From contig NZ_CAKVMR010000003.1 of the NCBI RefSeq assembly GCF_934772795.1, positions 831 to 64,830 on the forward strand: a stretch of DNA of 64,000 bases. Direction: 5' to 3'. A model generated the notes under the pieces. It made no database searches. It had not been told where the DNA came from and worked only from the letters and a program-made list of their open reading frames with translations. The translations under genes were made by a program, and so were the position numbers. The stretch comes from an uncultured Holdemanella sp. (lineage in GTDB: Bacteria; Bacillota_I; Bacilli_A; Erysipelotrichales; Erysipelotrichaceae). Positions 4,621 to 59,521 of the stretch are shown in pieces. Positions within the stretch are counted from its first letter, which is position 1; every line of letters starts with the position of its first letter.

Positions 4621-6798
4621 ATGAGTAACTCAATATTAGATACATTAAATGAAAATCAAAGAACTGCCGCAACGACAATCAATGAACACGTTCGTATTAT
4701 TGCGGGTGCAGGTAGTGGTAAAACGCGTGTCTTAATGGCACGTATTGTTTATTTAGTCCAAGATTGTGGTATTTTACCAAACCGCATCTTGGCTATTACA
4801 TTCACGAATAAAGCAGCGAATGAAATGAAAACACGACTTACTGCACAATTAGGCAGTATGGCAAGTGTAGTGCGCATTTCAACCATTCACTCTTTATGTG
4901 TAAGAATGCTTAGAGAAGATGCCGACTTGATTGGGTATCCAAAAACATTCGCAATTATGGATCCAGAAGATCAAAAGGCCATCTTAAAGCCAATCTATAA
5001 AGCATTAGAAGTGGATAAAACAACGATTTCTTATAATCGTGCATTAGGTGCTATTAGTGCTTATAAGACAAACTATATCGATCCACAAATGGCAGGTAAT
5101 ATGGCAATGGATGATGTCAGCATTACTTTAGCTAAAATCTATGCAGGCTATGAAAAGCGTCGTAACGAAATGAAGGCTATGGACTTCGATGATTTATTAT
5201 TAGAAGGACATCGCTTATTAAATAGCGTATCTTCTGTTCGTGAGAAGTGGCAAAATCGTTTAGACTACATTCATGTTGACGAGTTCCAGGACGTGGACCC
5301 TATTCAGTATGGAATTATTAAACTACTAACTGGAAAGAATACACATTTATGTGTTGTAGGAGATCCAGACCAGACCATCTATACTTGGCGTGGAGCAAGT
5401 GTTGACATTATTTTGAAATTTAATAAAGATTTTGAACCATGTAAAACTGTAATTTTGAATGAAAACTATCGTTCAACACAACCTATTCTAGACGCAAGTA
5501 ATGCCGTTATTAAATACAATAAGGAACGTATTGATAAAGATCTATACACAAAACTTCCTGGTGATGAAAAGATTACGATGTTTGAAGGAAAAGAAGATAG
5601 TGAAGAACCAATCTTTGTAGCTCGTCAAATCAATGAAAAACATAAAAAAGGTTTAGAGTATAAAGATATGGCGATTCTTTATCGTTCAAACTATTCTTCA
5701 CGTGCTTTTGAACGTATCTTTAAATCGGTAGGCATTCCATATGTAATCTATGGCGGAATTCGTTTCTATGAAAGACAAGAGATCAAAGATGCCCTATGTT
5801 ATTTAAGATTATGTACAAACCGCAACGAAGAAGATCCAGACCAAATGGCATTAGATTTAGCTGTGCTTCGCGTTATCAATGTGCCACGCCGTGGTATTGG
5901 TGCACGTACAATTGAAAATCTTCAAAAACAAGCTGCCGAAAGACACATGAATCTATATGATGTCATGAAAGATCCAATCGGATTAAGTACAGCCGTTACG
6001 AAGAAATGTGAAATGTTTGTAGACTTGATTGAAGATCTACGTGAAAATAGAGAACATTATGCCTTAGAAGATTTCTTAGACTATGTATTAGATACAACTG
6101 GCTATATTTCGATGTTGAAAGAAGATCGCGAAAGTGGTCAAGACCGTATCGATAACTTAAAAGAATTAAAAGAAGACATTGCCCAAAGTATGATTGAAGA
6201 TCCAGAAATGACTTTGGAATCTTATTTGCAAGACATTGCCTTATTTACAGATAAAACACAGGAAACAAGCGAAAATACAGTCAGCTTAATGACGGTACAT
6301 GCCGCAAAAGGACTAGAATTTGACACAGTATTCTTAGTTAACTTTAACGATGGTGTATTCCCAAGTTCTAGAGCCTGTGATGAAGGTGGCATGAAGGCAT
6401 TAGAAGAAGAAAGACGACTTCTATATGTTGCGATGACACGTGCTAAAAAAACACTATATATTACATGGAATACAGGCTTTAGCTATATGCAGGATGCGTT
6501 TAAAACACCAAGTCGTTTTAGAGCTGAAATCCCAATGGAATATATTGAACAAGAAGAAAAAGAAGAAGCACCAAAACAACCAAAGACTGTTGTGTCTCAA
6601 TCCTTAACAGGAAGACCATCTAAGCTTGGTGCGAATAAAAAGAAAATACGTTTACGTAAAGGGGATGCCGTTGAACATACGATCTATGGTCAAGGTGTTG
6701 TGCTTGAAATTCGTGGAGATGTCGCAACCATTGCCTTTGGTCATACGATTGGTGTGAAAAAGCTAAATGCATCACATCCTTCTTTAAAGAAAGCCTAG
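4621..6798 (+). CDS. pcrA: ATP-dependent DNA helicase PcrA/UvrD
   Basis: AGAGSGKT, TFTNKAA, VDEFQD, VGDPDQTIY, HAAKGLEF, EERRLLYVAMTRA. Confidence 0.95.
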   Translation: MSNSILDTLNENQRTAATTINEHVRIIAGAGSGKTRVLMARIVYLVQDCGILPNRILAITFTNKAANEMKTRLTAQLGSMASVVRISTIHSLCVRMLREDADLIGYPKTFAIMDPEDQKAILKPIYKALEVDKTTISYNRALGAISAYKTNYIDPQMAGNMAMDDVSITLAKIYAGYEKRRNEMKAMDFDDLLLEGHRLLNSVSSVREKWQNRLDYIHVDEFQDVDPIQYGIIKLLTGKNTHLCVVGDPDQTIYTWRGASVDIILKFNKDFEPCKTVILNENYRSTQPILDASNAVIKYNKERIDKDLYTKLPGDEKITMFEGKEDSEEPIFVARQINEKHKKGLEYKDMAILYRSNYSSRAFERIFKSVGIPYVIYGGIRFYERQEIKDALCYLRLCTNRNEEDPDQMALDLAVLRVINVPRRGIGARTIENLQKQAAERHMNLYDVMKDPIGLSTAVTKKCEMFVDLIEDLRENREHYALEDFLDYVLDTTGYISMLKEDRESGQDRIDNLKELKEDIAQSMIEDPEMTLESYLQDIALFTDKTQETSENTVSLMTVHAAKGLEFDTVFLVNFNDGVFPSSRACDEGGMKALEEERRLLYVAMTRAKKTLYITWNTGFSYMQDAFKTPSRFRAEIPMEYIEQEEKEEAPKQPKTVVSQSLTGRPSKLGANKKKIRLRKGDAVEHTIYGQGVVLEIRGDVATIAFGHTIGVKKLNASHPSLKKA

Positions 6799-15183: not shown

Positions 15184-15642
15184 TTAGTCGTGGGTTTTAT
15201 TAACTTTTAATGTATCGTTAATTGTTTTTAAATTAAGCATTGCCATGTAAAGAACTTTCTTTTTCTCTTCTTTTTTATTAGACATTAAGATACTTTGCAA
15301 TTCAGAAATTATTGTAAAAATTGCATGTTGGTTATCTTCGTCTTCTTGTTCAAATATATTTAATACTCTTTTAAGCATTTGAGGGAATTCGTTATTTATA
15401 GAATTTAGAACATCTAAATCATCCCATATCATAGGCTCTCTTATATCTGTTTCTCCACGCAAAAAAGATCCACTCACATTAAAAAATTTTTCTAGTGCAA
15501 CCATATTCTGTGAGCTAGGTTCTCTTACGCCACGTTCCCAATTCATAATTGTTCTAAATGGAATATTTAATTGTTCACCCATTTGTTTTTGCGTTAAACC
15601 TTTTTCTTTTCTTAAAAGTCTTATGTTGTCAGCGAGCTTCAC
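15184..15642 (-). CDS. prophage repressor, XRE-family HTH
   Basis: IRLLRKEKGLTQKQMG...TIMNWERGVREP; divergent from early operon; GTG start after SD GAGGTG. Confidence 0.85.
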   Translation of the reverse strand: MKLADNIRLLRKEKGLTQKQMGEQLNIPFRTIMNWERGVREPSSQNMVALEKFFNVSGSFLRGETDIREPMIWDDLDVLNSINNEFPQMLKRVLNIFEQEDEDNQHAIFTIISELQSILMSNKKEEKKKVLYMAMLNLKTINDTLKVNKTHD

Positions 15643-15674
15643 GCTTATCACCTCTTTTATAGTATAGCAATTAT

Positions 15675-15775
15675 GTAACCACTTGGATAGAAAAAACACA
15701 TCTAATAAATAAAAAAACGTCTTGACCTAACCATGTGGGTATCTTATAATATAACTAATGTAGCCATATGGATAC
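15675..15775. promoter_or_regulatory. immunity region: three quasi-palindromic operators plus early promoter
   Basis: GTAACCACTTGGATAG (15675), CTAACCATGTGGGTAT (15727), GTAGCCATATGGATAC (15760); promoter TTGACC-17-TATAAT at 15722-15750. Confidence 0.75.
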
Positions 15776-15791
15776 ATTTGGAGGTGATTAT

Positions 15792-16001
15792 ATGTATTTA
15801 ATACCAAATATTGACGAAATCAAAAAGAAGAGAAAAGCTAAAGGTTTGTCTAAATGCAAATTATCTATTGAGGCAGGCTTAGGTAATCAAGCTCTAAGCA
15901 GAATTGAAAGGCAAGAAACAAAAAAGATACATCCGTTAAGAGCTAAAGAAATTGCAAGAGTATTGGAATGTAATGTAAATGATATTTTTAAGGAGGAATA
16001 A
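15792..16001 (+). CDS. Cro/Ner-like HTH regulator
   Basis: Small XRE HTH, first gene of early operon, SD GGAGGTG. Confidence 0.8.
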   Translation: MYLIPNIDEIKKKRKAKGLSKCKLSIEAGLGNQALSRIERQETKKIHPLRAKEIARVLECNVNDIFKEE

Positions 16002-16003
16002 TA

Positions 16004-16606
16004 ATGATTATTTTCTATTATAACGATAACAAACAAAACAATAACAAGGGTGTTAAAACCGAAGAAATAGATCGCATATTTTCTCACATAGAAAGGGCAT
16101 CCGAATCCAACATAGACGTTGAACAATGTGAAATAGACACATTAGTTGAAGAAACGAGTGAACATAAAACAAATAATTTTAGTAAAAATCTTCGTTTATT
16201 AAGAAAATCTTTCAAACTTAAACAAGAAGATATTGAAGAAAAAACTAATATTTCTCATCACACAATTGCAAGTTATGAAATTGGTAGACGTGAACCTACA
16301 GCTAAAAACCTTTGCTTGCTTGCAAAACTCTTCAATGTAAATCCTATGTACTTAATGGAGAATGACTTATCTAAACACAAATATTTGCATGTTGTTAGTA
16401 AGAGCAATAGTTTTGCAGAGAATTTAAAAATAATAAGAAATTCTTTAAAAATGACACAAAAAGAATTTGCTTATTACACTGGCTTAACTCTCAAATCAGT
16501 TATTAATTATGAAAATAAAGTTCATTTACCTGATTATTCAAGTTTAAAAATACTAGCTGAGAAGCTGGTTATAGATCCATTTGAATTAGTGGGTACTGGT
16601 AAATAA
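16004..16606 (+). CDS. protein with two tandem XRE HTH domains
   Basis: FSKNLRLLRK...SYEIGRREP and FAENLKIIRN...NYENKVHLP. Confidence 0.8.
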   Translation: MIIFYYNDNKQNNNKGVKTEEIDRIFSHIERASESNIDVEQCEIDTLVEETSEHKTNNFSKNLRLLRKSFKLKQEDIEEKTNISHHTIASYEIGRREPTAKNLCLLAKLFNVNPMYLMENDLSKHKYLHVVSKSNSFAENLKIIRNSLKMTQKEFAYYTGLTLKSVINYENKVHLPDYSSLKILAEKLVIDPFELVGTGK

Positions 16607-16614
16607 TGACCAGT

Positions 16615-16672
16615 CCTTCTTAATGCAGCCAACGGAGGTCACAAGCCCTCGTAATAATGCAGAGTGAGGAGG
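16615..16672 (+). ncRNA. twister ribozyme-like RNA (type P1), copy 1
   Basis: P1 CCTTC/GGAGG, U-AA cleavage loop, P2 TGCA/TGCA, P4 GAGG/CCTC with loop TCACAAGC, T1 TCAC/GTGA, T2 GC/GC, conserved GA. Confidence 0.85.
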
Positions 16673-16679
16673 TGGTTAA

Positions 16680-18608
16680 ATGGAGACGCTAACACTTCAA
16701 GAATTAGCAGAATTAAAAGGATGTCACAGAGTTAGAATTCAACAACTTGTCACAGAAGGATTTTATAAATCTGTACAAGTTAAAAATTCAAGAGGTAGAT
16801 TAGTTCATGCCATACCTCTAGATCAACTGACAGAAGAGGAACAACAAAAATACTACCAATCTAAGGGTATCTTAAACACTAACATTGAAGTACAGAATGC
16901 TGAAAAGCTGGAGCTTATGAGCACCCAAGAAAGAGAGGAATGTGTTTTTTGGGAAAACGTTATTAATGAATGGCAATCCTTCAGGAATAAAGAAAACGCA
17001 AGAAATAAGAGTGAAGTTGATGAACTATTCATCACAAAGATGAAGTTAGAACATCCTGAGCTTAATTTCTCTACAAGTATTCTTTACCGCAAGTTTAAAG
17101 CTTTAAAAAATGGAGATCTAGAAGGCTTGATTGATAAACGAGGAAAAAAGAAAAAAGGCTACACGAAAATTGATGAACATGTGTGGCAAGTATTCTTGAG
17201 CTTCTTGTTAGATCAAGCAAAGCATCCACTTAGAAAATGCTATCAATATACTCAACTATATATTCAAAATACAGCACCTGAGTTATATGAGGATATACCA
17301 GCTTATTGTACTTTTACAAGACATGTAAAAGCCGATATTCCTGATGCAATCTTAACTCTTGGAAGAGATGGAGATAAGGCATTTGATGATAGATGTGCGC
17401 CATACATACGAAGAACTTATGACAACATGGATTCGAATGACTACTGGATTGGAGACAACCATACAATCGATGTAATTGTTGGGGATGGCGAAAAGACGTT
17501 CAGACTTTACCTAACAGCCTTTATGGATGCACGAAGCGGAATTATGACATGTATCTACATTACAGATACCCCATCATCGCAAGCTTCAATTTATTCATTA
17601 AGACGAGGTATCAAGAAGTATGGAATACCTAAAAATGTTTACTTAGATAATGGTCGAGAGTTCTTAACATTTGACTTTGGCGGTTCAGGACACAGAAAAA
17701 AGAAAAAGGACGAAGATAAATTTACTCCTCCTCCGATTCTTGAACGCTTAGGAATCAATATGGTCAATGCACTCGTTAGAAACGCAAAAGCTAAGATTAT
17801 TGAACGAAGATTCTTAGATTTCAAAAATAGTATTTCTAGATTATTTGCAACTTATACAGGTGGAAATGTAGTTGAAAAGCCTGAGATCTTAAAAGTTGAA
17901 CTTAAAAACGGAAATATACCTGAAAAACAAGCATTTATCAAAGAAATAGAAGAGCTGATTGAATATTACTTGAATTATGAAGAATACAACGGTGCAGTTG
18001 CAGCGGATAAAGGTAAAAGAAAGATTGATGTTTATCAGGAAAACCTACATACGAAGACAACCGCAACCGAAGAGCAGTTAAATCTTATGATGTTAAGATC
18101 CACTCGAGCTCAAAAAGTGACAAGACGTGGCGTTAGTTTGAAGATTGGTGGAACTCAGCTGGATTACTTCAACAATGAATTAATCATGCAGATGCTGAAT
18201 AAGAAAGTTTATCTAAGATATGATCCAGATGATTTATCCAGAGTTAGAGTATATGACCTTGATGATAGATTCATCATGGAAGTTGAAGCAGACAATGTCG
18301 CAGTACTTGAATACGGCGCAAGTAAGGACGAAGTAAAACTTGCGATGGCTAAAACTAGAGAACTTAAGAAAGTTGCGAAGGAAGCAATCAAGGATTCAAT
18401 CATTGCTAATATCGATAGAAATACTGCACTTGAATTGTTGCTGAAATCTGCTAAAGACAACAAAGACAGTGATGTTTCTAAACCAAACTACGATTTAGAG
18501 ATCTTAAATGCGGATGAAAAGCCAATGTTATACAAAGTGCATGATGTGGATTTAGACAAGATGAATATAAACTCAATTAAGCGACAAGGAGGAGATTATT
18601 ATGCTTAA
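16680..18608 (+). CDS. MuA-like DDE transposase
   Basis: WIGDNHTID, YLDNGREF, AKIIERRF catalytic motifs; C-terminal VYLRYDPDDLSRVRVY. Confidence 0.92.
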   Translation: METLTLQELAELKGCHRVRIQQLVTEGFYKSVQVKNSRGRLVHAIPLDQLTEEEQQKYYQSKGILNTNIEVQNAEKLELMSTQEREECVFWENVINEWQSFRNKENARNKSEVDELFITKMKLEHPELNFSTSILYRKFKALKNGDLEGLIDKRGKKKKGYTKIDEHVWQVFLSFLLDQAKHPLRKCYQYTQLYIQNTAPELYEDIPAYCTFTRHVKADIPDAILTLGRDGDKAFDDRCAPYIRRTYDNMDSNDYWIGDNHTIDVIVGDGEKTFRLYLTAFMDARSGIMTCIYITDTPSSQASIYSLRRGIKKYGIPKNVYLDNGREFLTFDFGGSGHRKKKKDEDKFTPPPILERLGINMVNALVRNAKAKIIERRFLDFKNSISRLFATYTGGNVVEKPEILKVELKNGNIPEKQAFIKEIEELIEYYLNYEEYNGAVAADKGKRKIDVYQENLHTKTTATEEQLNLMMLRSTRAQKVTRRGVSLKIGGTQLDYFNNELIMQMLNKKVYLRYDPDDLSRVRVYDLDDRFIMEVEADNVAVLEYGASKDEVKLAMAKTRELKKVAKEAIKDSIIANIDRNTALELLLKSAKDNKDSDVSKPNYDLEILNADEKPMLYKVHDVDLDKMNINSIKRQGGDYYA

Positions 18609-19548
18609 CGTTGCAGTAAAAGAAAGACTTGAGAAATACATGAAAGAAGCTGGTGTTTCTCAAGCGAAGATTGCGCCACTGATTGGCGTGAGTATGACAG
18701 CTCTTTCGCAGTATAGAGGTGGTAAATACAAAGGCGATGTAACAGCAGTAGAAGCTAAAATCGTTGAATATTTAGACACTATTACTGAACAAAAGGAAAT
18801 CAAAGAAAAGGTTCAAACATATAAACCAATGGAAGATTACATTCCTATTTCTATCAGCGAAGATATTTATAAGATGATTAGATATGCTCAATTAAATGGA
18901 GGTATCGCAATCGCCCATGGTGATGCAGGAATTGGCAAAACAAAAGCGGCGCAGAAGTATGTAAGAGAAAATCCAACGCAAGCAATCTATATGGAAATGA
19001 GTCCTGTAGCTGGAACTCTAGGCAATATGCTTAGACTTCTAGCTAGGACACTTAAAATTCCTGAAAGTAGAAACAAGATGGAGTTGATGCTTTCGATTAG
19101 AGATAAGCTTGAAGGAACAAACAGAGTGATCATCATCGATGAAGCTCAACACTTGAAATTATCGGCTCTTGAACAGATAAGAACACTTGCTGATCCAAAC
19201 TCAATCACAGGAACAAAGGGTGTTGGAATCGTGTTGATTGGTAATACAGAGGTCTATTCAAAGATGAAAGGAAAACAGGAAGCACAATTCGCTCAGCTAT
19301 TTTCAAGAATCAAGATGAGCCGATATTATTCAACATCCAATGTTACGGATGATGATGTAGAAAAATTATTCCCAGCGTTAAAACAACAAGGATTGAATAA
19401 AGAATTGAACTTCTTAAAAGGTGTTTGTAAATCAAAATGGGGCATTCGTGGAGCAACCAATGTTTATGAAAATAGCATTAACAATGATGATGTTTCAGTC
19501 AACGGACTCTTTGCCATGGCTAGAACATTAGGAATAGAGGTTATTTAA
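18601..19548 (+). CDS. MuB-like AAA+ transposition ATPase
   Basis: N-terminal HTH, GDAGIGKT Walker A, IIIDEAQHL Walker B; follows transposase. Confidence 0.92.
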   Translation: MLNVAVKERLEKYMKEAGVSQAKIAPLIGVSMTALSQYRGGKYKGDVTAVEAKIVEYLDTITEQKEIKEKVQTYKPMEDYIPISISEDIYKMIRYAQLNGGIAIAHGDAGIGKTKAAQKYVRENPTQAIYMEMSPVAGTLGNMLRLLARTLKIPESRNKMELMLSIRDKLEGTNRVIIIDEAQHLKLSALEQIRTLADPNSITGTKGVGIVLIGNTEVYSKMKGKQEAQFAQLFSRIKMSRYYSTSNVTDDDVEKLFPALKQQGLNKELNFLKGVCKSKWGIRGATNVYENSINNDDVSVNGLFAMARTLGIEVI

Positions 19549-19627
19549 CAAATGATCTATAAAATCTGCACTGCCATAGTTGTATATGCAATCTATGTAA
19601 GTATAAAAAACAATAAAAAGGAGAGAA

Positions 19628-19891
19628 ATGAAAGTGCGAAAGAGAAAAATTAAAAAAACATTGATTAGCGTTGTAATCGGAGTGATTTTAGGTGTTTTGC
19701 TTAGTCAAGTAACTTCTAAGCTAAGCATACAAGACTGTTTGTTATTAGCATCTATTCTATTGATTCTTGTGATTGTAACTGCAGCTATTATGGCTGAAGA
19801 TCTAGAGATTAGAATTAAAAAAGCCTATTTAGAAGGAAAACAAACGCTAAATTGTAAATGCACACACACATTCAAAACTGAGGACGAATAA
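19628..19891 (+). CDS. small two-TM phage protein
   Basis: SD AGGAG; two hydrophobic segments. Confidence 0.65.
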   Translation: MKVRKRKIKKTLISVVIGVILGVLLSQVTSKLSIQDCLLLASILLILVIVTAAIMAEDLEIRIKKAYLEGKQTLNCKCTHTFKTEDE

Positions 19892-19894
19892 AGT

Positions 19895-19951
19895 CCTCCT
19901 TAATGCAGCCAACGGAGGTCACAAGCCCTCGAATAATGCAGAGTGAGGAGG
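19895..19951 (+). ncRNA. twister ribozyme-like RNA (type P1), copy 2
   Basis: P1 CCTCC/GGAGG; 31-nt core TAATGCAGCCAACGGAGGTCACAAGCCCTCG identical to copies 1 and 3; T1 TCAC/GTGA. Confidence 0.85.
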
Positions 19952-19959
19952 TGAAGCTA

Positions 19960-20223
19960 ATGAGATTAGAAAAAGATTCTCTATACTTTGAAGCTAGAGT
20001 TATCACTATGGTCGGCTCATTGCATTGGTTTGGTGATACTTATCTTGCTGAAGAATTGTTAAAGCTGGCAACGAAAACAGTTTATATCCGAGATGACAGA
20101 CGATATCTATATGTTTATCGAATCAAAGAAGATGCATTGTTTAATGTAGAAAAGATACAAACGACTTTTGAATTAGTATGCAAGTTGAAAAAACATGACG
20201 ATAAAAGAAGATATGGTAACTAG
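19960..20223 (+). CDS. hypothetical protein resembling the Mu transposase C-terminal domain
   Basis: SD GGAGGTG; YLAEELLKLATKTVYIRDD..LYVY resembles YFNNELIMQMLNKKVYLRYD..VRVY of the phage's own transposase. Confidence 0.55.
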   Translation: MRLEKDSLYFEARVITMVGSLHWFGDTYLAEELLKLATKTVYIRDDRRYLYVYRIKEDALFNVEKIQTTFELVCKLKKHDDKRRYGN

Positions 20224-20244
20224 TTCTTAAAGTAGGAGGAGTAT

Positions 20245-20616
20245 ATGGCAGCGAAGAAATATAAACGTATGACCAATCGTGAAAAAGACGAAAGAAAACG
20301 TTTCAAAAAGGATTTACAGGAAAAAGGGATTATCCCGCCTGATAAGCCAAGACTAAACAGAAAGAAGTTTGCTCAAGAAGTTTGTGATGAATGGAAAGAT
20401 TACAGCTTAGTAGAATATGCAAAACTGAACACATTTATGATCGTTTTAGGAATGATGACGAATTCAGGTCGATATGGAAATGTAAGTAAAGAAGATCTTG
20501 GCATTTTAAAACTTAAGAAATGTGCGATAGTTTTAGATCAAAAGTTTCAAGAGAACGATAATAAGATGACATATGAACAGATCATTGAAGTTCTTAAACC
20601 TATATGGGAATTGTGA
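20245..20616 (+). CDS. phage hypothetical protein
   Basis: SD AGGAGG; ORF in early operon. Confidence 0.7.
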   Translation: MAAKKYKRMTNREKDERKRFKKDLQEKGIIPPDKPRLNRKKFAQEVCDEWKDYSLVEYAKLNTFMIVLGMMTNSGRYGNVSKEDLGILKLKKCAIVLDQKFQENDNKMTYEQIIEVLKPIWEL

Positions 20617-20626
20617 GGTGATAAAA

Positions 20627-20806
20627 ATGGAATATCAGAATATGACCAATGAACAAATCAAAAGAAGAATTGAATGGATTGACAGAGAGTTGTTCTGTAT
20701 CGATATGAAAGACCGATGGGATGCTTGTGATTGGAGTTTAGTGCACGAGTATGAAAAGGAAAAAAGAGAGCTTCAGGCAAAATTGGAAGCTAGAATCGAA
20801 AAATAG
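20627..20806 (+). CDS. phage hypothetical protein
   Basis: SD GAGGTG before MEYQNMTNE. Confidence 0.6.
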   Translation: MEYQNMTNEQIKRRIEWIDRELFCIDMKDRWDACDWSLVHEYEKEKRELQAKLEARIEK

Positions 20807-20807
20807 T

Positions 20808-21026
20808 ATGACTGGACAAGAATTCTTTGAAAAAGTAACTAAAAACCCAAGATACAAGCACTTATATGAAGAAAATATACACTTCAATACGCAAATGCAA
20901 TATCTCAAGTCAAAGCCCAAAGTCCTCACTTCAACCTTGCTAGGTTCAATTGCATACTTAAGCGTACTTCTTATGTATCAAGATCTAGAAAAAATAAGAG
21001 AAAGTGACAATGAAATAGGAGTTTAA
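20808..21026 (+). CDS. phage hypothetical protein
   Basis: ATG immediately after preceding stop (MTGQEFF...). Confidence 0.5.
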   Translation: MTGQEFFEKVTKNPRYKHLYEENIHFNTQMQYLKSKPKVLTSTLLGSIAYLSVLLMYQDLEKIRESDNEIGV

Positions 21027-21062
21027 CATGGATAAAAAAGTGGTTTTAAACAAACTTAAAAA

Positions 21063-21686
21063 ATGCAAGAGGATGAAGCAATGAAAAGATCTCTTCTGAT
21101 GGTTTCACTAATAATCACTATCATAGTAACGAATAAGATATATGCATTGACAATTACTCCTGCGAATAAACCAATAGAAGTCGAAACACAAATTGTTGAA
21201 ACTAAAGCTAAGGAGTTAAAAACAGAGGTCAAAACATACTACAATGTCCCTCTTGATATGGATTTGCAAGATTATATAAGAGAAGAGTGCATAGATGCAG
21301 GATTAGATATGAAATTAGTACTTGCGATTATGAAAGTAGAAAGTAATTTCAATCCAGAAGATATATCATGCACAGATGATTTTGGACTTATGCAAGTCAA
21401 TAAAGTCAATTTTGAAGAGGTAGAAAGAGAGTTAGGACTAACAAATATGCTTGATCCATACCAAGGCGCTAAGGCTGGCATCTTCTTATTAAGCAAGTTG
21501 AAATGGAACGAAAGCGAACATCAAATGCTTATGGCTTATAACATTGGTTTTGCAGGAGCTCAAAAGTTATGGGAACAAGGCATTTATGAAACAGACTACT
21601 CTAAAAAAGTATTAAAAGCAAAAGAACTGATAGGAGGTACTCAATATGAAATCACAGTATTTTGTGATCAAGAATCTGAACGGTGA
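21063..21686 (+). CDS. lytic transglycosylase (SLT domain) with N-terminal hydrophobic segment
   Basis: LAIMKVESNFNP, GLMQVN, AYNIG motifs; start probably 21081. Confidence 0.85.
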   Translation: MQEDEAMKRSLLMVSLIITIIVTNKIYALTITPANKPIEVETQIVETKAKELKTEVKTYYNVPLDMDLQDYIREECIDAGLDMKLVLAIMKVESNFNPEDISCTDDFGLMQVNKVNFEEVERELGLTNMLDPYQGAKAGIFLLSKLKWNESEHQMLMAYNIGFAGAQKLWEQGIYETDYSKKVLKAKELIGGTQYEITVFCDQESER

Positions 21687-21813
21687 AAAGCGATTTGTCG
21701 AGATTGATGAAGAGCTAACAGAGGAAGAGTTTATGGCTTACTTTTCTTTATATGTTAAAGAAGCCTATCCGATTACAGAAGATGAATACAAAAAATGCAC
21801 TGGGGATAAATAA
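21646..21813 (+). CDS. small acidic phage protein, 55 aa (not in ORF track)
   Basis: SD AGGAGG; MKSQYFVIKNLNGEKRFVEIDEEL...CTGDK. Confidence 0.65.
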   Translation: MKSQYFVIKNLNGEKRFVEIDEELTEEEFMAYFSLYVKEAYPITEDEYKKCTGDK

Positions 21814-21818
21814 CCCAT

Positions 21819-21873
21819 TGCTCTAATGCAGCCAACGGAGGTCACAAGCCCTCGGATAATGCAGAGTGGAGCA
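21819..21873 (+). ncRNA. twister ribozyme-like RNA (type P1), copy 3
   Basis: Same core; compensatory P1 TGCT/AGCA; T1 TCAC/GTGG. Confidence 0.82.
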
Positions 21874-21898
21874 TAGGAAAACAAAGGAGGAAAAACAG

Positions 21899-22156
21899 AT
21901 GGAAAACAAACTATTTAAAAAGATTTCTAGAACTGGTGGAATTACGATTCCTGCACAGATTAGACATCAGATGAACATTCCAAAAGGTGCAGCAGTAGAA
22001 ATCGTTCAAACGGAAGACAATAGCCTTCTCATCAAAAAGCATATTCCCACATGCATGTGTTGTGGAACTGCTGACCATGTAAAAGTATTTAATAATGTAG
22101 AACTATGCACTACATGTGCTAGTAAGTTTGCTGGAGGTGGCGAACATGGAAATTAG
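21899..22156 (+). CDS. AbrB/MazE/SpoVT-family DNA-binding protein with C-terminal Cys cluster
   Basis: KKISRTGGITIPAQIR..MNI..GAAVEI; CMCCG...CTTC. Confidence 0.8.
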   Translation: MENKLFKKISRTGGITIPAQIRHQMNIPKGAAVEIVQTEDNSLLIKKHIPTCMCCGTADHVKVFNNVELCTTCASKFAGGGEHGN

Positions 22157-22778
22157 AGAGAAAGTTGATCGCTACGCTGAATTAGATGCACAATTGGCTG
22201 GCATCAAAAATGAAATGGAAAATTTAAAGGCTGATTTTGAAGAATACGCCGAAAAAGATCTGCAGGATACAAAACTAAAAACCGTAGAAATCTATGGAAA
22301 TAATGGTGCTAAAGTCATCGTACAAAATGCGGCTACAGTAAAACCAATTTCGTGGGTAGTTATCAAAGAGGTTTTAGGAAAGACTGTTCCTGATTTTATT
22401 AAAGAAGAAACAAAGCTCTCATTGACCGATGTTGCCAAAACAATGTTGGCGAATATGTTCAAAGGAGATTATATTGAAGACACATTATCTAATGTTGTCA
22501 CTCATATGACTCCTGATCAGAAGAAACAAGCGCTTCTTATGAAACGTTTAAAAGGAAAATACAAGCAAGATCAAAAGAACATCTTGAAGTACACAGACCT
22601 TAGCGAAAAAGAAGCGAGTGATAATGCATTCCTTGTACAGGATGTTATGGCTTATCAAAATATCTTGAGAATCATTGAAGCTTCGGGATTTGATGGAACG
22701 GTTGAAGAAGCAGTTGCTAAAATCAAGAGTTCATTGATTGTTGAAGATTCAATCAAGGTAACGCTAGAAGCGGAATAA
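22146..22778 (+). CDS. phage hypothetical protein (coiled-coil N-terminus)
   Basis: SD GGAGGTG; lies among Mu-like early genes. Confidence 0.7.
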   Translation: MEIREKVDRYAELDAQLAGIKNEMENLKADFEEYAEKDLQDTKLKTVEIYGNNGAKVIVQNAATVKPISWVVIKEVLGKTVPDFIKEETKLSLTDVAKTMLANMFKGDYIEDTLSNVVTHMTPDQKKQALLMKRLKGKYKQDQKNILKYTDLSEKEASDNAFLVQDVMAYQNILRIIEASGFDGTVEEAVAKIKSSLIVEDSIKVTLEAE

Positions 22779-24927: not shown

Positions 24928-25443
24928 ATGTGGTGTGTGATACAAGTGAAAGGAAGCCAAGAGCTTCAAATACAGAAGCAATTAGAGTTGGCTGGGTATC
25001 AAGCTCTTGTTCCAAGAGAAAGTCGCTTGATTCGTTCAGGAGGCGCTTGGATGCAAAGAGAATACATATTATTTCCTAACTATGTTTTCGTACAAACCAA
25101 ATTCAAAGCCGAAGACTTTTACAAAATCAAAGGTATTAATGGGGTTCAACGTTTCTTGGGGGACAAAACTTCTCCATCCACTCTTACCTTCCTGGAAGAA
25201 GAATGGGTAAAAATTTTAAACAACGATGGTCATCCGTTAGAACCAACTGAGGTAACGGTAGATGAAGATGGAAATGTCATCATTTTAAAAGGTATCCTTT
25301 TAAAATTTAAAAGCAGAATAAAAAGTTTTAATAAAAGACAAAGAAAAGCAACATTTGAAATTACTGTATGTAATGAAATTAAAGAAATCACGTTGAGTTT
25401 GAATGTGATTGATACTACAAAGCCAACAGAAACAAACGGTTGA
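24928..25443 (+). CDS. NusG-paralog (LoaP/UpxY-like) transcription antiterminator
   Basis: WCVIQVKGSQE, ILFPNYVFV, GVQRFLG NGN motifs; KOW-like C-terminus. Confidence 0.85.
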   Translation: MWCVIQVKGSQELQIQKQLELAGYQALVPRESRLIRSGGAWMQREYILFPNYVFVQTKFKAEDFYKIKGINGVQRFLGDKTSPSTLTFLEEEWVKILNNDGHPLEPTEVTVDEDGNVIILKGILLKFKSRIKSFNKRQRKATFEITVCNEIKEITLSLNVIDTTKPTETNG

Positions 25444-25633
25444 TTCGTCCTGTAAGCGGAAATTGGTGGTTAAATAGCATGAACCATCCTAGAAAATAAA
25501 ATATCTAGGATGGCGAAGCACACCCTAATGTTCGTAAAGGGCGCATTACCTTTTAATTCGCGCAAAAACCCCTTTAAAAAACGAATTAGGCATAAAGTTG
25601 AGTAATTGTGGGGTACAAGAAAAAACAACGCTT

Positions 25634-25681: not shown

Positions 25682-27448
25682 ATGGGAAGACTCAAAAAAA
25701 GAAGTTTAGACATGCTTTTGGAAGGAATTTTGGAAGCTGAAAATCAAATAGCAGATAGTGAAGCATATGATACGCAAGAATATACAACCTATTTGAACGA
25801 CCTTTTAAAAGAGTTTTTAAAAAAGGACAACAACCTTTTAAGAAAACAACTTCTTGATGATTTTGAAAGAGGAGCTCCTCTTACTGGAAAGAATGGAATA
25901 CGAAAAAAACTGGCTTCGTTTGATATGGAATTTTTTGGAAGAGCCTACCTTCCTCATTACTTTGTCAGAAAGTCTCCCCACTTTCATGAAGAGCTCGATA
26001 ACATTTGGAAGCATGGCGTTATGAAAGACGAAGTACCACTTTCAAAAAGCGTTCAAAAGAAGATAAGCAGAATGGCAGGTTGCAAAAGAGCGATTGCTGC
26101 ACCTCGTGGTCATGCTAAATCAACGAACCTTACATTCAAAGGATCACTTCATGCAGCATTATATGAGTATAAGCACTACATCATTATCTTGTCCGATAGT
26201 TCAGAACAGGCTGAGAGTTTCTTAGATTCTATTAAAACCGAGATGGAAGAAAATGAACATATCATCGAAGATTTTGGGAAACTAGATGGTAAGGTATGGC
26301 GTTCGAACGTTTTATTAACAAAGACAAACATAAAAATTGAAGCTATTGGTTCAGGCAAAAAGATTCGTGGTAGAAAGCACAAGAATTGGAGGCCTGATTT
26401 ATTGGTTCTTGATGATATTGAGAATGATGAAAATGTAAGAACGGTTGACCAGCGAAAGAAACTATCCGACTGGTTTTATAAGGCAGTATCGAAAGCTGGT
26501 GATGATTACACCGATATTATTTATATTGGAACAATGCTTCATTATGATTCGTTGCTTGCTAATGTGTTGAAAAATCCAAGCTATAAAAGCATTAAATATC
26601 AAGCAGTCCTTTCTTTTTCATCTGCAGTTGATCTATGGGATGAATGGGAAAAGATATATACCGACCTTGATGAACCTGAACATGAAGCTAAAGCGTTGCA
26701 TTTCTTTGAACAACATAAAAAAGAAATGCTGGAAGGTACAAAAGTGTTATGGGAAGACAAACTTTCCTATTACAACCTTATGTGCATCAAGGTGTCTGAA
26801 GGTGATGCCTCATTCAATTCAGAATTACAGAATGAACCAATCAGCCCTGATGATTGCTTGTTCCAGGAAGAATGGTTTGATTACTACAACGAATTTGAAA
26901 TGAACTTTAATTCGAAGGATTTTGAATTCTATGGAGCAGTAGATCCATCGCTTGGTAAGAATAAGAAATCAGACTATTCAGCCATTATCACTATCGCCAA
27001 ACAAAAGGCAACTGGATATATGTATGTTATTGATGCCGATGTGATGCGTAGACATCCTGATCGCATCATTAACGATGTGCTCGAAAAAGAAAGATGGCTT
27101 AGAAAGACTTATGGAAAAGGTTTTAAAAAACTTGGCTGTGAAACTGTACAGTTCCAATGGTTCTTGAAAGAGGAAATTTCCAAAGCTTCTGCTAAAGCTG
27201 GGCTCTACTTGCCAATCGAAGAAATCAATTCAACTGGTGACAAGGTGCTGCGTATTCAATCGCTGCAACCTGACATCAAGAATAAATACATCAAGTTCAA
27301 TCGTAGACACAAATTGCTTTTAGAACAGCTTATGCATTTTCCTATGGCAAGCCATGATGATGCGCCTGATGCATTGGAAATGGCACGAACGATTGCTAAA
27401 AAAGGAAAGAGATTCAGAATATTAGACCGTTCGCTTTTTGGAGGATAG
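25682..27448 (+). CDS. terminase large subunit
   Basis: APRGHAKS Walker A, RGRKH, LVLDDIE, AVDPSLG, HDDAPDA nuclease motif. Confidence 0.93.
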   Translation: MGRLKKRSLDMLLEGILEAENQIADSEAYDTQEYTTYLNDLLKEFLKKDNNLLRKQLLDDFERGAPLTGKNGIRKKLASFDMEFFGRAYLPHYFVRKSPHFHEELDNIWKHGVMKDEVPLSKSVQKKISRMAGCKRAIAAPRGHAKSTNLTFKGSLHAALYEYKHYIIILSDSSEQAESFLDSIKTEMEENEHIIEDFGKLDGKVWRSNVLLTKTNIKIEAIGSGKKIRGRKHKNWRPDLLVLDDIENDENVRTVDQRKKLSDWFYKAVSKAGDDYTDIIYIGTMLHYDSLLANVLKNPSYKSIKYQAVLSFSSAVDLWDEWEKIYTDLDEPEHEAKALHFFEQHKKEMLEGTKVLWEDKLSYYNLMCIKVSEGDASFNSELQNEPISPDDCLFQEEWFDYYNEFEMNFNSKDFEFYGAVDPSLGKNKKSDYSAIITIAKQKATGYMYVIDADVMRRHPDRIINDVLEKERWLRKTYGKGFKKLGCETVQFQWFLKEEISKASAKAGLYLPIEEINSTGDKVLRIQSLQPDIKNKYIKFNRRHKLLLEQLMHFPMASHDDAPDALEMARTIAKKGKRFRILDRSLFGG

Positions 27449-45234: not shown

Positions 45235-45398
45235 CTGCTCTTGTAATTAGGTATATGATGGATACGTCTGTCATTTCAAATCAAGGGAATAAAGGAGTCT
45301 AATTCCATGCTGAATAAGCAAAAAAATTAAATAAAGATGAAAACCGATAGTAATGTTAAATGAACTCCGTTAAGCATCTTAAAAATTAGGTGATGATC

Positions 45399-59269: not shown

Positions 59270-59319
59270 ATTTGCTCAAAATACGTTTTATAGCGTATAA
59301 TAAACAAGTCAATAAGCTT

Positions 59320-59521
59320 AGAAAAGAAGAGTATTTATATGGCGTACTAAAGAGAGCGGATGGTTTGGTGTGAATCTGCGTACAATATATAGAGAAGATG
59401 GTCTTGGAGCTTCTTTATCGATAGGTAGGTAAAGACGTATGCTGGCGTTAACAGCTTGAGGTGTGAAAACACAAACTAAGGTGGTACCACGAAGCTTTCG
59501 TCCTTGGATGAAGGCTTTTTT
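59320..59521 (+). promoter_or_regulatory. T-box riboswitch (Met specifier) with terminator
   Basis: AGAGA and GGTGTGAA stem I motifs, ATG specifier at 59398-59400, T-box AAGGTGGTACCACG at 59478-59491, terminator AAGCTTTCGTCC/GGATGAAGGCTT plus T run; upstream of metG. Confidence 0.9.

Follow-up and report, generated by a model that had tools for sequence, protein, structure and literature searches.

Three probable P3-less twister ribozymes between early genes of a Mu-like prophage, and self-cleaving ribozyme motifs beside the transposase gene of its relatives

INTRODUCTION

The early operon of a Mu-like prophage in an uncultured Holdemanella sp. contains three copies of one short repeat, each lying between two genes. 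The question that this locus raises is which element the repeats encode and what that element would do for the phage. We analysed the 64,000-nt stretch that holds them (assembly GCF_934772795.1, contig NZ_CAKVMR010000003.1, positions 831 to 64,830), referred to below as the window. A preliminary description, made from the letters alone, had read the repeats as twister ribozymes built on an identical 31-nt core. Scanning the window returned this core exactly three times, always on the + strand (16621-16651, 19901-19931 and 21824-21854), while 100 dinucleotide-preserving shuffles gave an expected number of zero copies; no further copy with up to three mismatches was found in the 64-kb window. 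The sequence described 3' of each core, an A-rich junction of 6-7 nt followed by TGCA and GAGTG, was in place at all three sites, and all three elements do lie in gaps between open reading frames (ORFs). What bacterial twister and hammerhead ribozymes do has been described as 'largely elusive', and why they share gene associations 'has not yet been determined' (PMC6765202, as excerpted). Here we present evidence from sequence and covariation that the three elements are very likely genuine twister ribozymes.

RESULTS

The three elements match the twister-P1 family over its full length

We searched the window with Rfam covariance models, the check that the preliminary description had named. At Rfam gathering thresholds the window yielded only a T-box, an RT-14 and a RAGATH-28 RNA. 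With E-value reporting, the model of the type-P1 twister (RF03160) matched all three sites over model positions 1-68 with significant E-values of 4.3e-7 to 1.5e-6 for the whole window (scores in Table 1). These scores fall 21-23 bits under the curated gathering score of 67.2 bits because the optional P3 hairpin is replaced by a 5-nt linker (CAACG in the Rfam alignment); the gathering score is a curation cut-off and reflects no structural feature. According to the published account, in the parts we draw on, the stems P1, P2 and P4 count as essential to the twister, with P0, P3 and P5 as optional additions; P3, which is termed 'phylogenetically expendable', gives way to a short junction in about 20% of twisters, for example in the rice twister structure; P1 is conserved yet dispensable for cleavage; and the catalytic residues are the cleavage-site A and an invariant G (PMC5408937).

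All highly conserved RF03160 positions were either kept in the three copies or had changed together with their pairing partner. UAA, GCC, GGUC-CAAGCCC and GAG-G were present in every copy, as were the pseudoknots T1 (CAC/GUG, joining loop L4 to the 3' strand of loop L1) and T2 (GC/GC, joining the conserved GC after P2 to a GC in L4), the cleavage-site A and the invariant G, which we placed at the first G of GAGUG by reading the published numbering and not with a tool. P1, P2 and P4 follow in the consensus order in the full-length RF03160 alignment, and both chain ends lie in P1. There were two departures from the consensus, A-U for C-G at the middle pair of T1 and A-U for C-G at one P4 pair. 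The predicted cut sites (Table 1) are those U^A steps that correspond to the published twister cleavage site. Nested minimum free energy (MFE) folds recovered P1, P2 and P4; the z-scores of these folds (-1.09, -1.28 and -1.59) were not significant under an energy model that ignores pseudoknots.

Two details of the preliminary description needed correction. The strings given for P1 were slightly wrong, and the correct strands are CCUUCU/AGGAGG, CCUCCU/AGGAGG and UGCUC/GAGCA. Likewise T1 is present, with three supported pairs and not the four that had been proposed. In the remainder of the host assembly (2.34 Mb in 133 contigs, 91.7% complete) no other twister-P1 match was found at E<=0.01.

Table 1. 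Positions of the twister elements, their parts and the surrounding features in the window
Feature	Position	Strand	Description or evidence
Twister 1	16615-16672	+	RF03160 45.8 bits; nested-pair model R1 71.3 bits
Twister 1, stems	P1 16615-16620/16667-16672; P2 16624-16627/16658-16661; P4 16635-16638/16647-16650
Twister 1, pseudoknots and active site	T1 16640-16642/16664-16666; T2 16628-16629/16645-16646		invariant G16662; predicted cut U16621/A16622
Twister 2	19895-19951	+	RF03160 46.3 bits; R1 75 bits
Twister 2, stems	P1 19895-19900/19946-19951; P2 19904-19907/19937-19940; P4 19915-19918/19927-19930
Twister 2, pseudoknots and active site	T1 19920-19922/19943-19945; T2 19908-19909/19925-19926		invariant G19941; predicted cut U19901/A19902
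Twister 3	21818-21874	+	RF03160 44.4 bits; R1 72.2 bits
Twister 3, stems	P1 21819-21823/21869-21873; P2 21827-21830/21860-21863; P4 21838-21841/21850-21853		P1 UGCUC/GAGCA
Twister 3, pseudoknots and active site	T1 21843-21845/21866-21868; T2 21831-21832/21848-21849		invariant G21864; predicted cut U21824/A21825
Gap holding twister 1	16607-16679	+	2xHTH gene to MuA
Gap holding twister 2	19892-19959	+	87-aa membrane-like ORF to another 87-aa ORF
Gap holding twister 3	21814-21898	+	55-aa ORF to AbrB/MazE-like gene
Hairpin abutting P1 of twister 1	16595-16614	+	loop holds upstream stop codon 16604-16606
Hairpin before twister 2	19880-19898	+	loop holds stop codon 19889-19891; identical L145 stretch folded
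Small hairpin before twister 3 (UGGG/CCCA)	21801-21817	+	MFE fold; loop holds stop codon 21811-21813
Helix-turn-helix (HTH) repressor, divergent	15184-15699	-	Pfam/PHROG
Promoter-like site TTGACC-17-TATAAT, likely early promoter	15722-15750	+	consensus scan, 11/12 hexamer positions
HTH genes, two	15768-16001, 16004-16606	+	Pfam/PHROG
MuA transposase	16680-18608	+	Mu-transpos_C, HTH_Tnp_Mu_2, Mu I-gamma domain, rve; phrog_310 3.8e-99
MuB-like AAA ATPase	18601-19548	+	AAA_22; phrog_296
Small ORF between MuB and twister 2	19628-19891	+	ORF list
ORF after twister 2	start 19960	+	Shine-Dalgarno sequence in P1 of twister 2
SLT transglycosylase	21063-21686	+	Pfam/PHROG; several small ORFs around
SpoVT/AbrB-fold 85-aa gene (Pfam MazE_antitoxin)	21899-22156	+	Pfam E 1e-8
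NusG-like gene	24928-25443	+	Pfam/PHROG
Large terminase gene	25682-27448	+	Pfam/PHROG

Covariation in relatives supports the twister fold, including both pseudoknots

The exact core occurred 13 times on five IMG/VR contigs, with two or three copies per contig. A degenerate pattern of the 5' half returned at least 128 stretches, which together with the exact-core loci gave 146 candidates. Among the matches listed, 130 of the 146 candidates carried the P2 partner and GAGNN at the correct place; in the 108 unique candidates the middle pair of T1 was Watson-Crick in 104 cases (A:T 88, C:G 7, T:A 6, G:C 3) and non-Watson-Crick in four, and 74 had the 6-nt linker of the P3-less form, which is therefore common in phage contigs.

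Two alignments were evaluated for paired changes. Alignment A1, of 53 P3-less sequences, had 92.3% of its cells paired compared with 74.5% after shuffling, a percentage inflated by the selection of its members for a complete P2 (4/4), a Watson-Crick T1 and at least three P1 pairs. Changes on both sides were seen in 13 of its 19 pairs, and the covariation score was 0.479, compared with 0.123 for shuffled sequences and at most 0.093 when the partners were slid. Alignment A3 was obtained with R1, a twister model that contains the nested pairs only and no pseudoknot, and to whose nested pairs A3 is thus fitted; its 123 matches comprised 80 distinct rows. Since the pseudoknots are absent from the search model, A3 is a less circular test of T1 and T2 than A1. 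T1 was 99.6% paired in the distinct rows, its middle pair being AU in 67, GC in nine and UA in four and changed on both sides in 13 of the 80; T2 was 100% paired, with an outer pair of GC in 64, AU in 14 and GU in two. For P1, P2 and P4, the pairs changed on both sides numbered 6/6, 4/4 and 2/4 in A1 and 6/6, 2/4 and 3/4 in A3. All five helical elements of the twister fold covary. The fold proposed in the preliminary description, with its UAA loop, P2, P4, T1, T2 and conserved GA, agrees with this covariation.

The copies within one phage resembled one another more than those of different phages (core identity 0.931 in 56 pairs vs 0.821 in 7447 pairs). A change of T2 from G-C to A-U was common to three of three copies in the locus L150 (2916-5598) and to two of three in L153 (3022-9323), and all three copies in the window (16615-21874) share the same P4. 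This suggests duplication of twister copies within a genome, or their homogenisation.

A further group of sequences showed a perfect twister 5' half (UAA, P2, GCC, P3 or linker, and L4 loop), no recognisable P2' and GAGNG, and then a Shine-Dalgarno (SD) sequence and ATG. They were seen in nine loci (L125, L035, L041, L077, L090, L100, L121, L136 and L137), and L125 has four such copies in tandem, spaced by about 350-480 nt. These sequences may be a split or permuted form, may have another 3' partner or may be decayed copies.

Ribozymes accompany the transposase gene throughout the related loci

We compared 81 MuA loci, namely the best 80 of 309 confirmed viral loci from an alignment search and one from a single-protein search, with MuA identities to the window of 45-99%. 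All 123 R1 twister matches were on the MuA strand. At least one was present in 77 of the 81 loci, and three of the four loci that had none extend for only 0.85-1.1 kb after MuA. Seven twisters have their 3' end 8-12 nt ahead of MuA, and the MuA identity to the window is at least 63% in each of these loci; the remaining 116 are found 1.0-4.3 kb 3' of the MuA stop codon, 45 of them at 1.0-1.5 kb, which is the position of twister 2.

At the Rfam gathering thresholds, 12 more distant loci contained 14 type II hammerhead ribozymes, distributed over ten loci, and in nine of the 12 there is a hammerhead whose end is 16-27 nt short of the MuA match. One twister exceeded the Rfam threshold in these 12 loci, compared with 20 R1 matches. 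From the 14 Rfam matches we built a hammerhead model (R2); across the 81 loci it returned 107 matches, every one of them on the MuA strand. Type II hammerheads were present upstream of MuA, one to four per locus, in 67 of the 81 (viral contigs L145-L225). No type II hammerhead was found in the window, in its own genome or in its close relatives and clade.

In the 74 loci with at least 100 nt of upstream sequence, the last 80 nt before MuA held a hammerhead in 63, a twister in seven and neither in four. A third ribozyme class was not found in these four empty slots at E<=0.01; in two of them (L174 and L212) there is a hammerhead 318 nt inside a longer tblastn match, probably also ahead of MuA. 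Altogether every one of the 81 loci carried a ribozyme, with one to six per locus and three as the commonest number, and all 230 matches (123 twister, 107 hammerhead) were on the coding strand. The occurrence of two unrelated ribozymes at one site of the operon argues that the cut itself is selected. Escherichia coli phage Mu has a gap of 1 nt between ner and A, and its first 12 kb gave no ribozyme match at E<=1.

A genome-wide pattern scan found 29 full twisters in the 80 listed of 125 loci, mostly from gut Clostridia, with a few from Collinsella and one from a Bacteroides metagenome-assembled genome. A wide host range was considered and dropped, since the matches in Proteobacteria and further phyla were for the most part to the 5' half and due to chance. 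The same twisters were seen in Eubacterium sp. TM05-53 (L252 and L253) together with a MuA 95% identical to that of the window, which places the phage in a named isolate.

A conserved hairpin and a start site enclose the twisters

The surroundings were assessed in 99 unique twister contexts, taken from the 81 MuA loci and the window. The distance from the upstream stop codon to the twister had a median of 8 nt and was at most 40 nt in 93 contexts; that from the twister to the next SD sequence and start codon had a median of 19 nt and was at most 40 nt in 94. The 34 nt 5' of P1 had a mean MFE of -9.56 kcal/mol, in comparison with -4.27 for random windows and -3.33 for other ORF stops (n = 1429), and a mean z-score of -2.76 against shuffles. 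An MFE of -6 kcal/mol or lower was reached in 83% of the contexts vs 28% of the random windows and 17% of the ORF-stop windows. Between phages the sequence of these hairpins varies; they adjoin P1, and the stop codon of the upstream gene is often situated in the loop. We tentatively take them to be the optional twister stem P0. That stem is named, without its place, in the published account as far as it is drawn on here (PMC5408937). Before twister 2, the 3' arm of the hairpin and the 5' strand of P1 have 2-4 nt in common.

In twisters 1 and 2 the P1 3' strand, AGGAGG, is at the same time an SD sequence, and the 5' strand is its complement, an anti-SD. The GGAGG within P1 is 7-8 nt from the ATG at both sites, that of twister 1 being the MuA start at 16680. 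Twister 3 has a separate SD sequence at 21884-21890, ahead of the ATG at 21899. Among the 99 contexts, the SD sequence followed P1 in 74 and was not recognisable in seven; it lay within P1 in 18, of which 16 are twister 1 and 2 slots of the window's own clade. A wider phage set gave an SD-in-P1 arrangement in about 15 of 85. Unmasking of the SD sequence as a general role of these twisters was ruled out by these two counts; the small number of such contexts marks the arrangement as a lineage-specific elaboration.

The gene directly 3' of the twister was most commonly of the AbrB/MazE fold. This was assessed in 74 downstream proteins, that is, 86 distinct ones minus 13 (eight MuA and five near-identical copies from the closest relatives) plus the ORF after twister 2. 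The AbrB/MazE fold was assigned to 28 of them at E<=0.001, 25 being above the Pfam cut-off; the others were HTH_3 (4), IstB-like ATPase (3), 3D domain (2), two weak single matches and 35 with no family.

The window contains a Mu-like prophage

We scanned 24 ORFs of the window against Pfam and PHROG (Table 1). Their order is that of a Mu-like early operon, with a divergent repressor, an HTH regulator, MuA, MuB, GemA, Mor and Mu-type head genes, and it parallels the annotated record of phage Mu. Downstream of the AbrB-like gene we identified GemA, Mor, a Mu gp27-type small terminase, the NusG-like protein, the large terminase, a portal protein and a Mu F-like protein. Judging from gene content and order, this is a Mu-like prophage, and the three elements lie inside its early operon, before MuA, after MuB and one small ORF, and before the AbrB-like gene. 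MuA, MuB, GemA and Mor are all encoded, as expected for the transposition operon of the preliminary description. The promoter-like site points away from the repressor gene and is a consensus match only; downstream of it a consensus scan revealed no convincing terminator-like site on the + strand before 25937, and these genes would thus form a single early transcript. A Megablast comparison of 15700-22200 with 50,697 deposited phage records returned nothing, and hence no named cultured relative among them.

The AbrB/MazE-fold gene overlaps by 41 nt with a 220-aa ORF at 22116-22778 that has a weak DUF7376 match (21899-22778 together, + strand). The two could form a two-gene module, and the small AbrB/MazE-fold protein may act in regulation and not as an antitoxin.

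Other structured RNAs were also detected on the + strand. A RAGATH-28 RNA (25434-25519; 55.5 bits vs a gathering score of 45.3) lies between the NusG-like and large terminase genes. RAGATH-28 was above threshold in nine of 12 distant MuA loci and was present in three of four further loci, once above threshold and twice just below it, on the MuA strand throughout. It is a conserved part of these Mu-like phages and is possibly tied to the NusG paralogue; a literature search found no paper that mentions it. An RT-14 RNA (45238-45379; 65.9 bits vs 48.1) is located in the late region of the window, and this motif class has been linked to reverse transcriptase genes (Weinberg 2017, as excerpted). 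A T-box leader (59310-59508; 128.7 bits) is presumably in host DNA past the prophage end, and 6379-6470 gave a sub-threshold match to a Clostridioides difficile small RNA family (39.7 bits vs 65.2; E 0.006).

DISCUSSION

The sequences described here resemble the type-P1 twister (RF03160; Roth et al. 2014, as cited in PMC5408937) in the order P1, UAA, P2, GCC, P4/L4, A-rich junction, P2', GAGNG and P1', and in T1, T2, the cleavage-site A and the invariant G. They differ from it in the short linker that stands for P3 and in the A-U pairs at the T1 middle position and in P4. The twister of Oryza sativa (4OJI), whose P3 is likewise described as replaced by a short junction (PMC5408937), is eukaryotic and has no operon context, and we liken the two by description and not by sequence.

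We propose that the elements are functional P3-less type-P1 twisters which probably cut the early mRNA into separately stable, independently translatable blocks. Each twister would fold co-transcriptionally and cut between U and A of its UAA loop. The early RNA would be split in four: a block of about 0.87 kb for the regulators, one of 3.28 kb with MuA, MuB and a small ORF, a third of 1.92 kb with six small accessory genes, and a fourth with the AbrB-like, GemA and Mor genes. Each upstream product would end in the hairpin (putatively P0), a few nucleotides and a 2',3'-cyclic phosphate. On each downstream product the compact P2/P4/T1/T2 fold would bury the 5'-OH at which the product begins, and the ribosome-binding site (RBS) would come directly after this fold. 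In this way the new 3' end would be protected by the hairpin and the new 5' end covered by what is left of the twister fold, leaving blocks that may differ in stability and could be translated independently. At twisters 1 and 2 the P1 5' strand would leave after the cut and expose the SD sequences of MuA and of the next gene, a departure that would be favoured by a hairpin partly overlapping this strand. Sequence, fold, covariation, placement and conservation are what the analysis shows; cleavage, the single transcript and the effects on stability and translation we infer.

The idea of mRNA processing into separate segments has already been published for bacterial hammerhead and twister ribozymes (PMC6765202, PMC3088659; both as excerpted). 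Perreault et al. (2011, PMC3088659, as excerpted) describe prophages in which genes or small groups of genes are bordered by several hammerheads that all point the same way. They propose that the long transcripts of the phage are processed to shorter mRNAs, and for three arrangements they report cleavage, both in vitro and in E. coli. Their paper says of the identities of the bordered genes that they are 'not constant' and nowhere speaks of a transposase. Our elements differ from those hammerheads in ribozyme class and in their fixed slots before MuA and the AbrB-like gene, and the relatives of the window phage resemble them in carrying type II hammerheads upstream of MuA.

Engineered devices offer a second comparison, and two of them demonstrate that such a layout can function. 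pRAP inserts a stem-loop, a twister, an RBS and an ORF between cistrons, and the polycistronic RNA is thereby cut into mRNAs that are translated independently of each other; only the last cistron was reported as expressed when the stem-loop before the cleavage site was left out (PMC9872166, as excerpted). All three sites in the window have the same order of hairpin, twister and SD sequence. In the 'type P1 SD construct', in which SD and anti-SD form P1 as they do in twisters 1 and 2, an active ribozyme gave five-fold more reporter than an inactive one (Felletti et al. 2016, PMC5052635, as excerpted). Both devices are man-made and were measured in E. coli, whereas the natural elements are known from sequence, and most relatives of the window phage differ from the P1 SD construct in having the SD sequence after P1. 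By analogy, the hairpin-twister-SD units of these phages are the natural equivalent of the engineered layouts.

A more far-reaching proposal can be offered only tentatively: that a ribozyme before the transposase gene is obligatory in a large Firmicute Mu-like clade, that its class (twister or type II hammerhead) is interchangeable, and that in the window it forms a natural ribozyme-gated RBS, with the MuA SD sequence locked in P1, a hairpin competing for the anti-SD and MuA translated only from self-cut RNA. If this is true, the engineered SD-in-P1 twister switch would have its first counterpart in nature, and bacterial twisters would have a defined biological role.

Several observations weigh against the processing role or against parts of the evidence for it. 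Besides the sub-threshold Rfam scores, the non-significant folding z-scores, the selection behind A1 and the fitting of A3, the rarity of SD sequences in P1 and their concentration in one clade count here. Of the 99 contexts, 19 are spanned by a mechanically called + strand ORF of 40 aa or more. The single early transcript has consensus scans as its sole basis. When the RNA left by cleavage at twister 1 is folded to its MFE, some of the SD sequence becomes weakly paired again, with coding sequence, and the absolute expression of the type P1 SD construct was low, the remaining fold being situated just before the SD sequence (PMC5052635). Finally, twisters precede MuA at MuA identities of at least 63% and hammerheads at 53% or less; this split follows MuA identity and possibly goes back to a single replacement event.

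The best of the other explanations, though an unlikely one, keeps the ribozymes active and reverses the consequence: the cut would destabilise the downstream block through 5'-to-3' decay of the 5'-OH product and so restrain the transposase and accessory genes. Its precedent is glmS in Firmicutes, described as the sole bacterial self-cleaving ribozyme with a settled role, in which cleavage leads to degradation by cellular RNases (PMC6765202, as excerpted); the host lineage is Firmicute-like by its MuA relatives, and tight limits on transposase would, we suppose, suit a transposable phage. Like the window twisters, glmS is a bacterial self-cleaving RNA in an mRNA leader, where the cut changes expression; unlike them, it needs a metabolite cofactor, is placed ahead of a single gene family and lowers expression by decay, and nothing suggests a ligand for the window twisters. 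The 3' product of a twister keeps its pseudoknotted fold, with a 5' end that has been described as buried, and the published excerpts report that twister cleavage in a 5' untranslated region in E. coli left mRNA level and expression unchanged (PMC5052635) and that pRAP cistrons starting with a twister are well expressed (PMC9872166). Moreover, an SD sequence inside P1 is sensible only if the cleaved RNA is translated.

It is quite improbable that the elements are selfish or near-neutral cassettes that spread between intergenic gaps by recombination, with any effect on expression incidental. The higher core identity within a phage (0.931) than between phages (0.821), the T2 change from G-C to A-U common to the copies of L150 (3/3) and L153 (2/3), and a ribozyme number that varies from one to six per locus would fit such spreading. 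However, the slots are fixed over MuA identities of 45-99%, a ribozyme precedes MuA in 70 of 74 loci, the AbrB/MazE fold recurs in 28 of 74 downstream proteins, all 230 matches are on the coding strand and the catalytic positions are kept throughout.

Still less credible is that the RNAs fold and are not cleaved in vivo, serving instead as structured sites to which, for instance, a phage regulator or a NusG-like antitermination factor (24928-25443) would bind. P1 is conserved although it is dispensable for catalysis, and a NusG-like gene and a conserved RAGATH-28 RNA belong to the same phage. Such a role does not account for the preservation of all catalysis-linked positions, and a shared binding role would not explain why an unrelated self-cleaving class occupies the same slot in 63 loci; related clustered prophage hammerheads are, in addition, reported to cleave in vitro and in E. 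coli (PMC3088659, as excerpted). It is barely conceivable that the repeats act as DNA, as sites for transposase or repressor binding or for recombination, with a coincidental RNA fold: Mu-type phages generally carry repeated protein-binding sites and the three cores are identical, but compensatory changes maintain the pairing of the RNA, with G-U pairs among them that only one strand could form, both pseudoknots covary, all matches are on the transcribed strand and an RNA covariance model matches at E 4.3e-7 to 1.5e-6.

Neither the kind of element nor the processing idea is new. This analysis adds that the operon context is fixed, that a hairpin is conserved beside the twisters, that an SD-in-P1 arrangement exists in nature and that Rfam thresholds fail to report these twisters. 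A literature search found no paper that joins self-cleaving ribozymes with Mu-like phages; the association tables of Roth 2014 and Weinberg 2015 may list Mu-type genes. Annotation at Rfam gathering thresholds misses these twisters, with none of three recovered in the window and one of 20 in the twelve related loci. These findings link the association to the early operon of Firmicute Mu-like phages, one concrete setting that is amenable to genetics and in which the fixed slot before the transposase gene is a clean system for probing ribozyme function. The vague idea of 'mRNA processing' is turned into specific predictions for fragment sizes, for end chemistry and for what single-base changes would do to transposase output and to phage induction.

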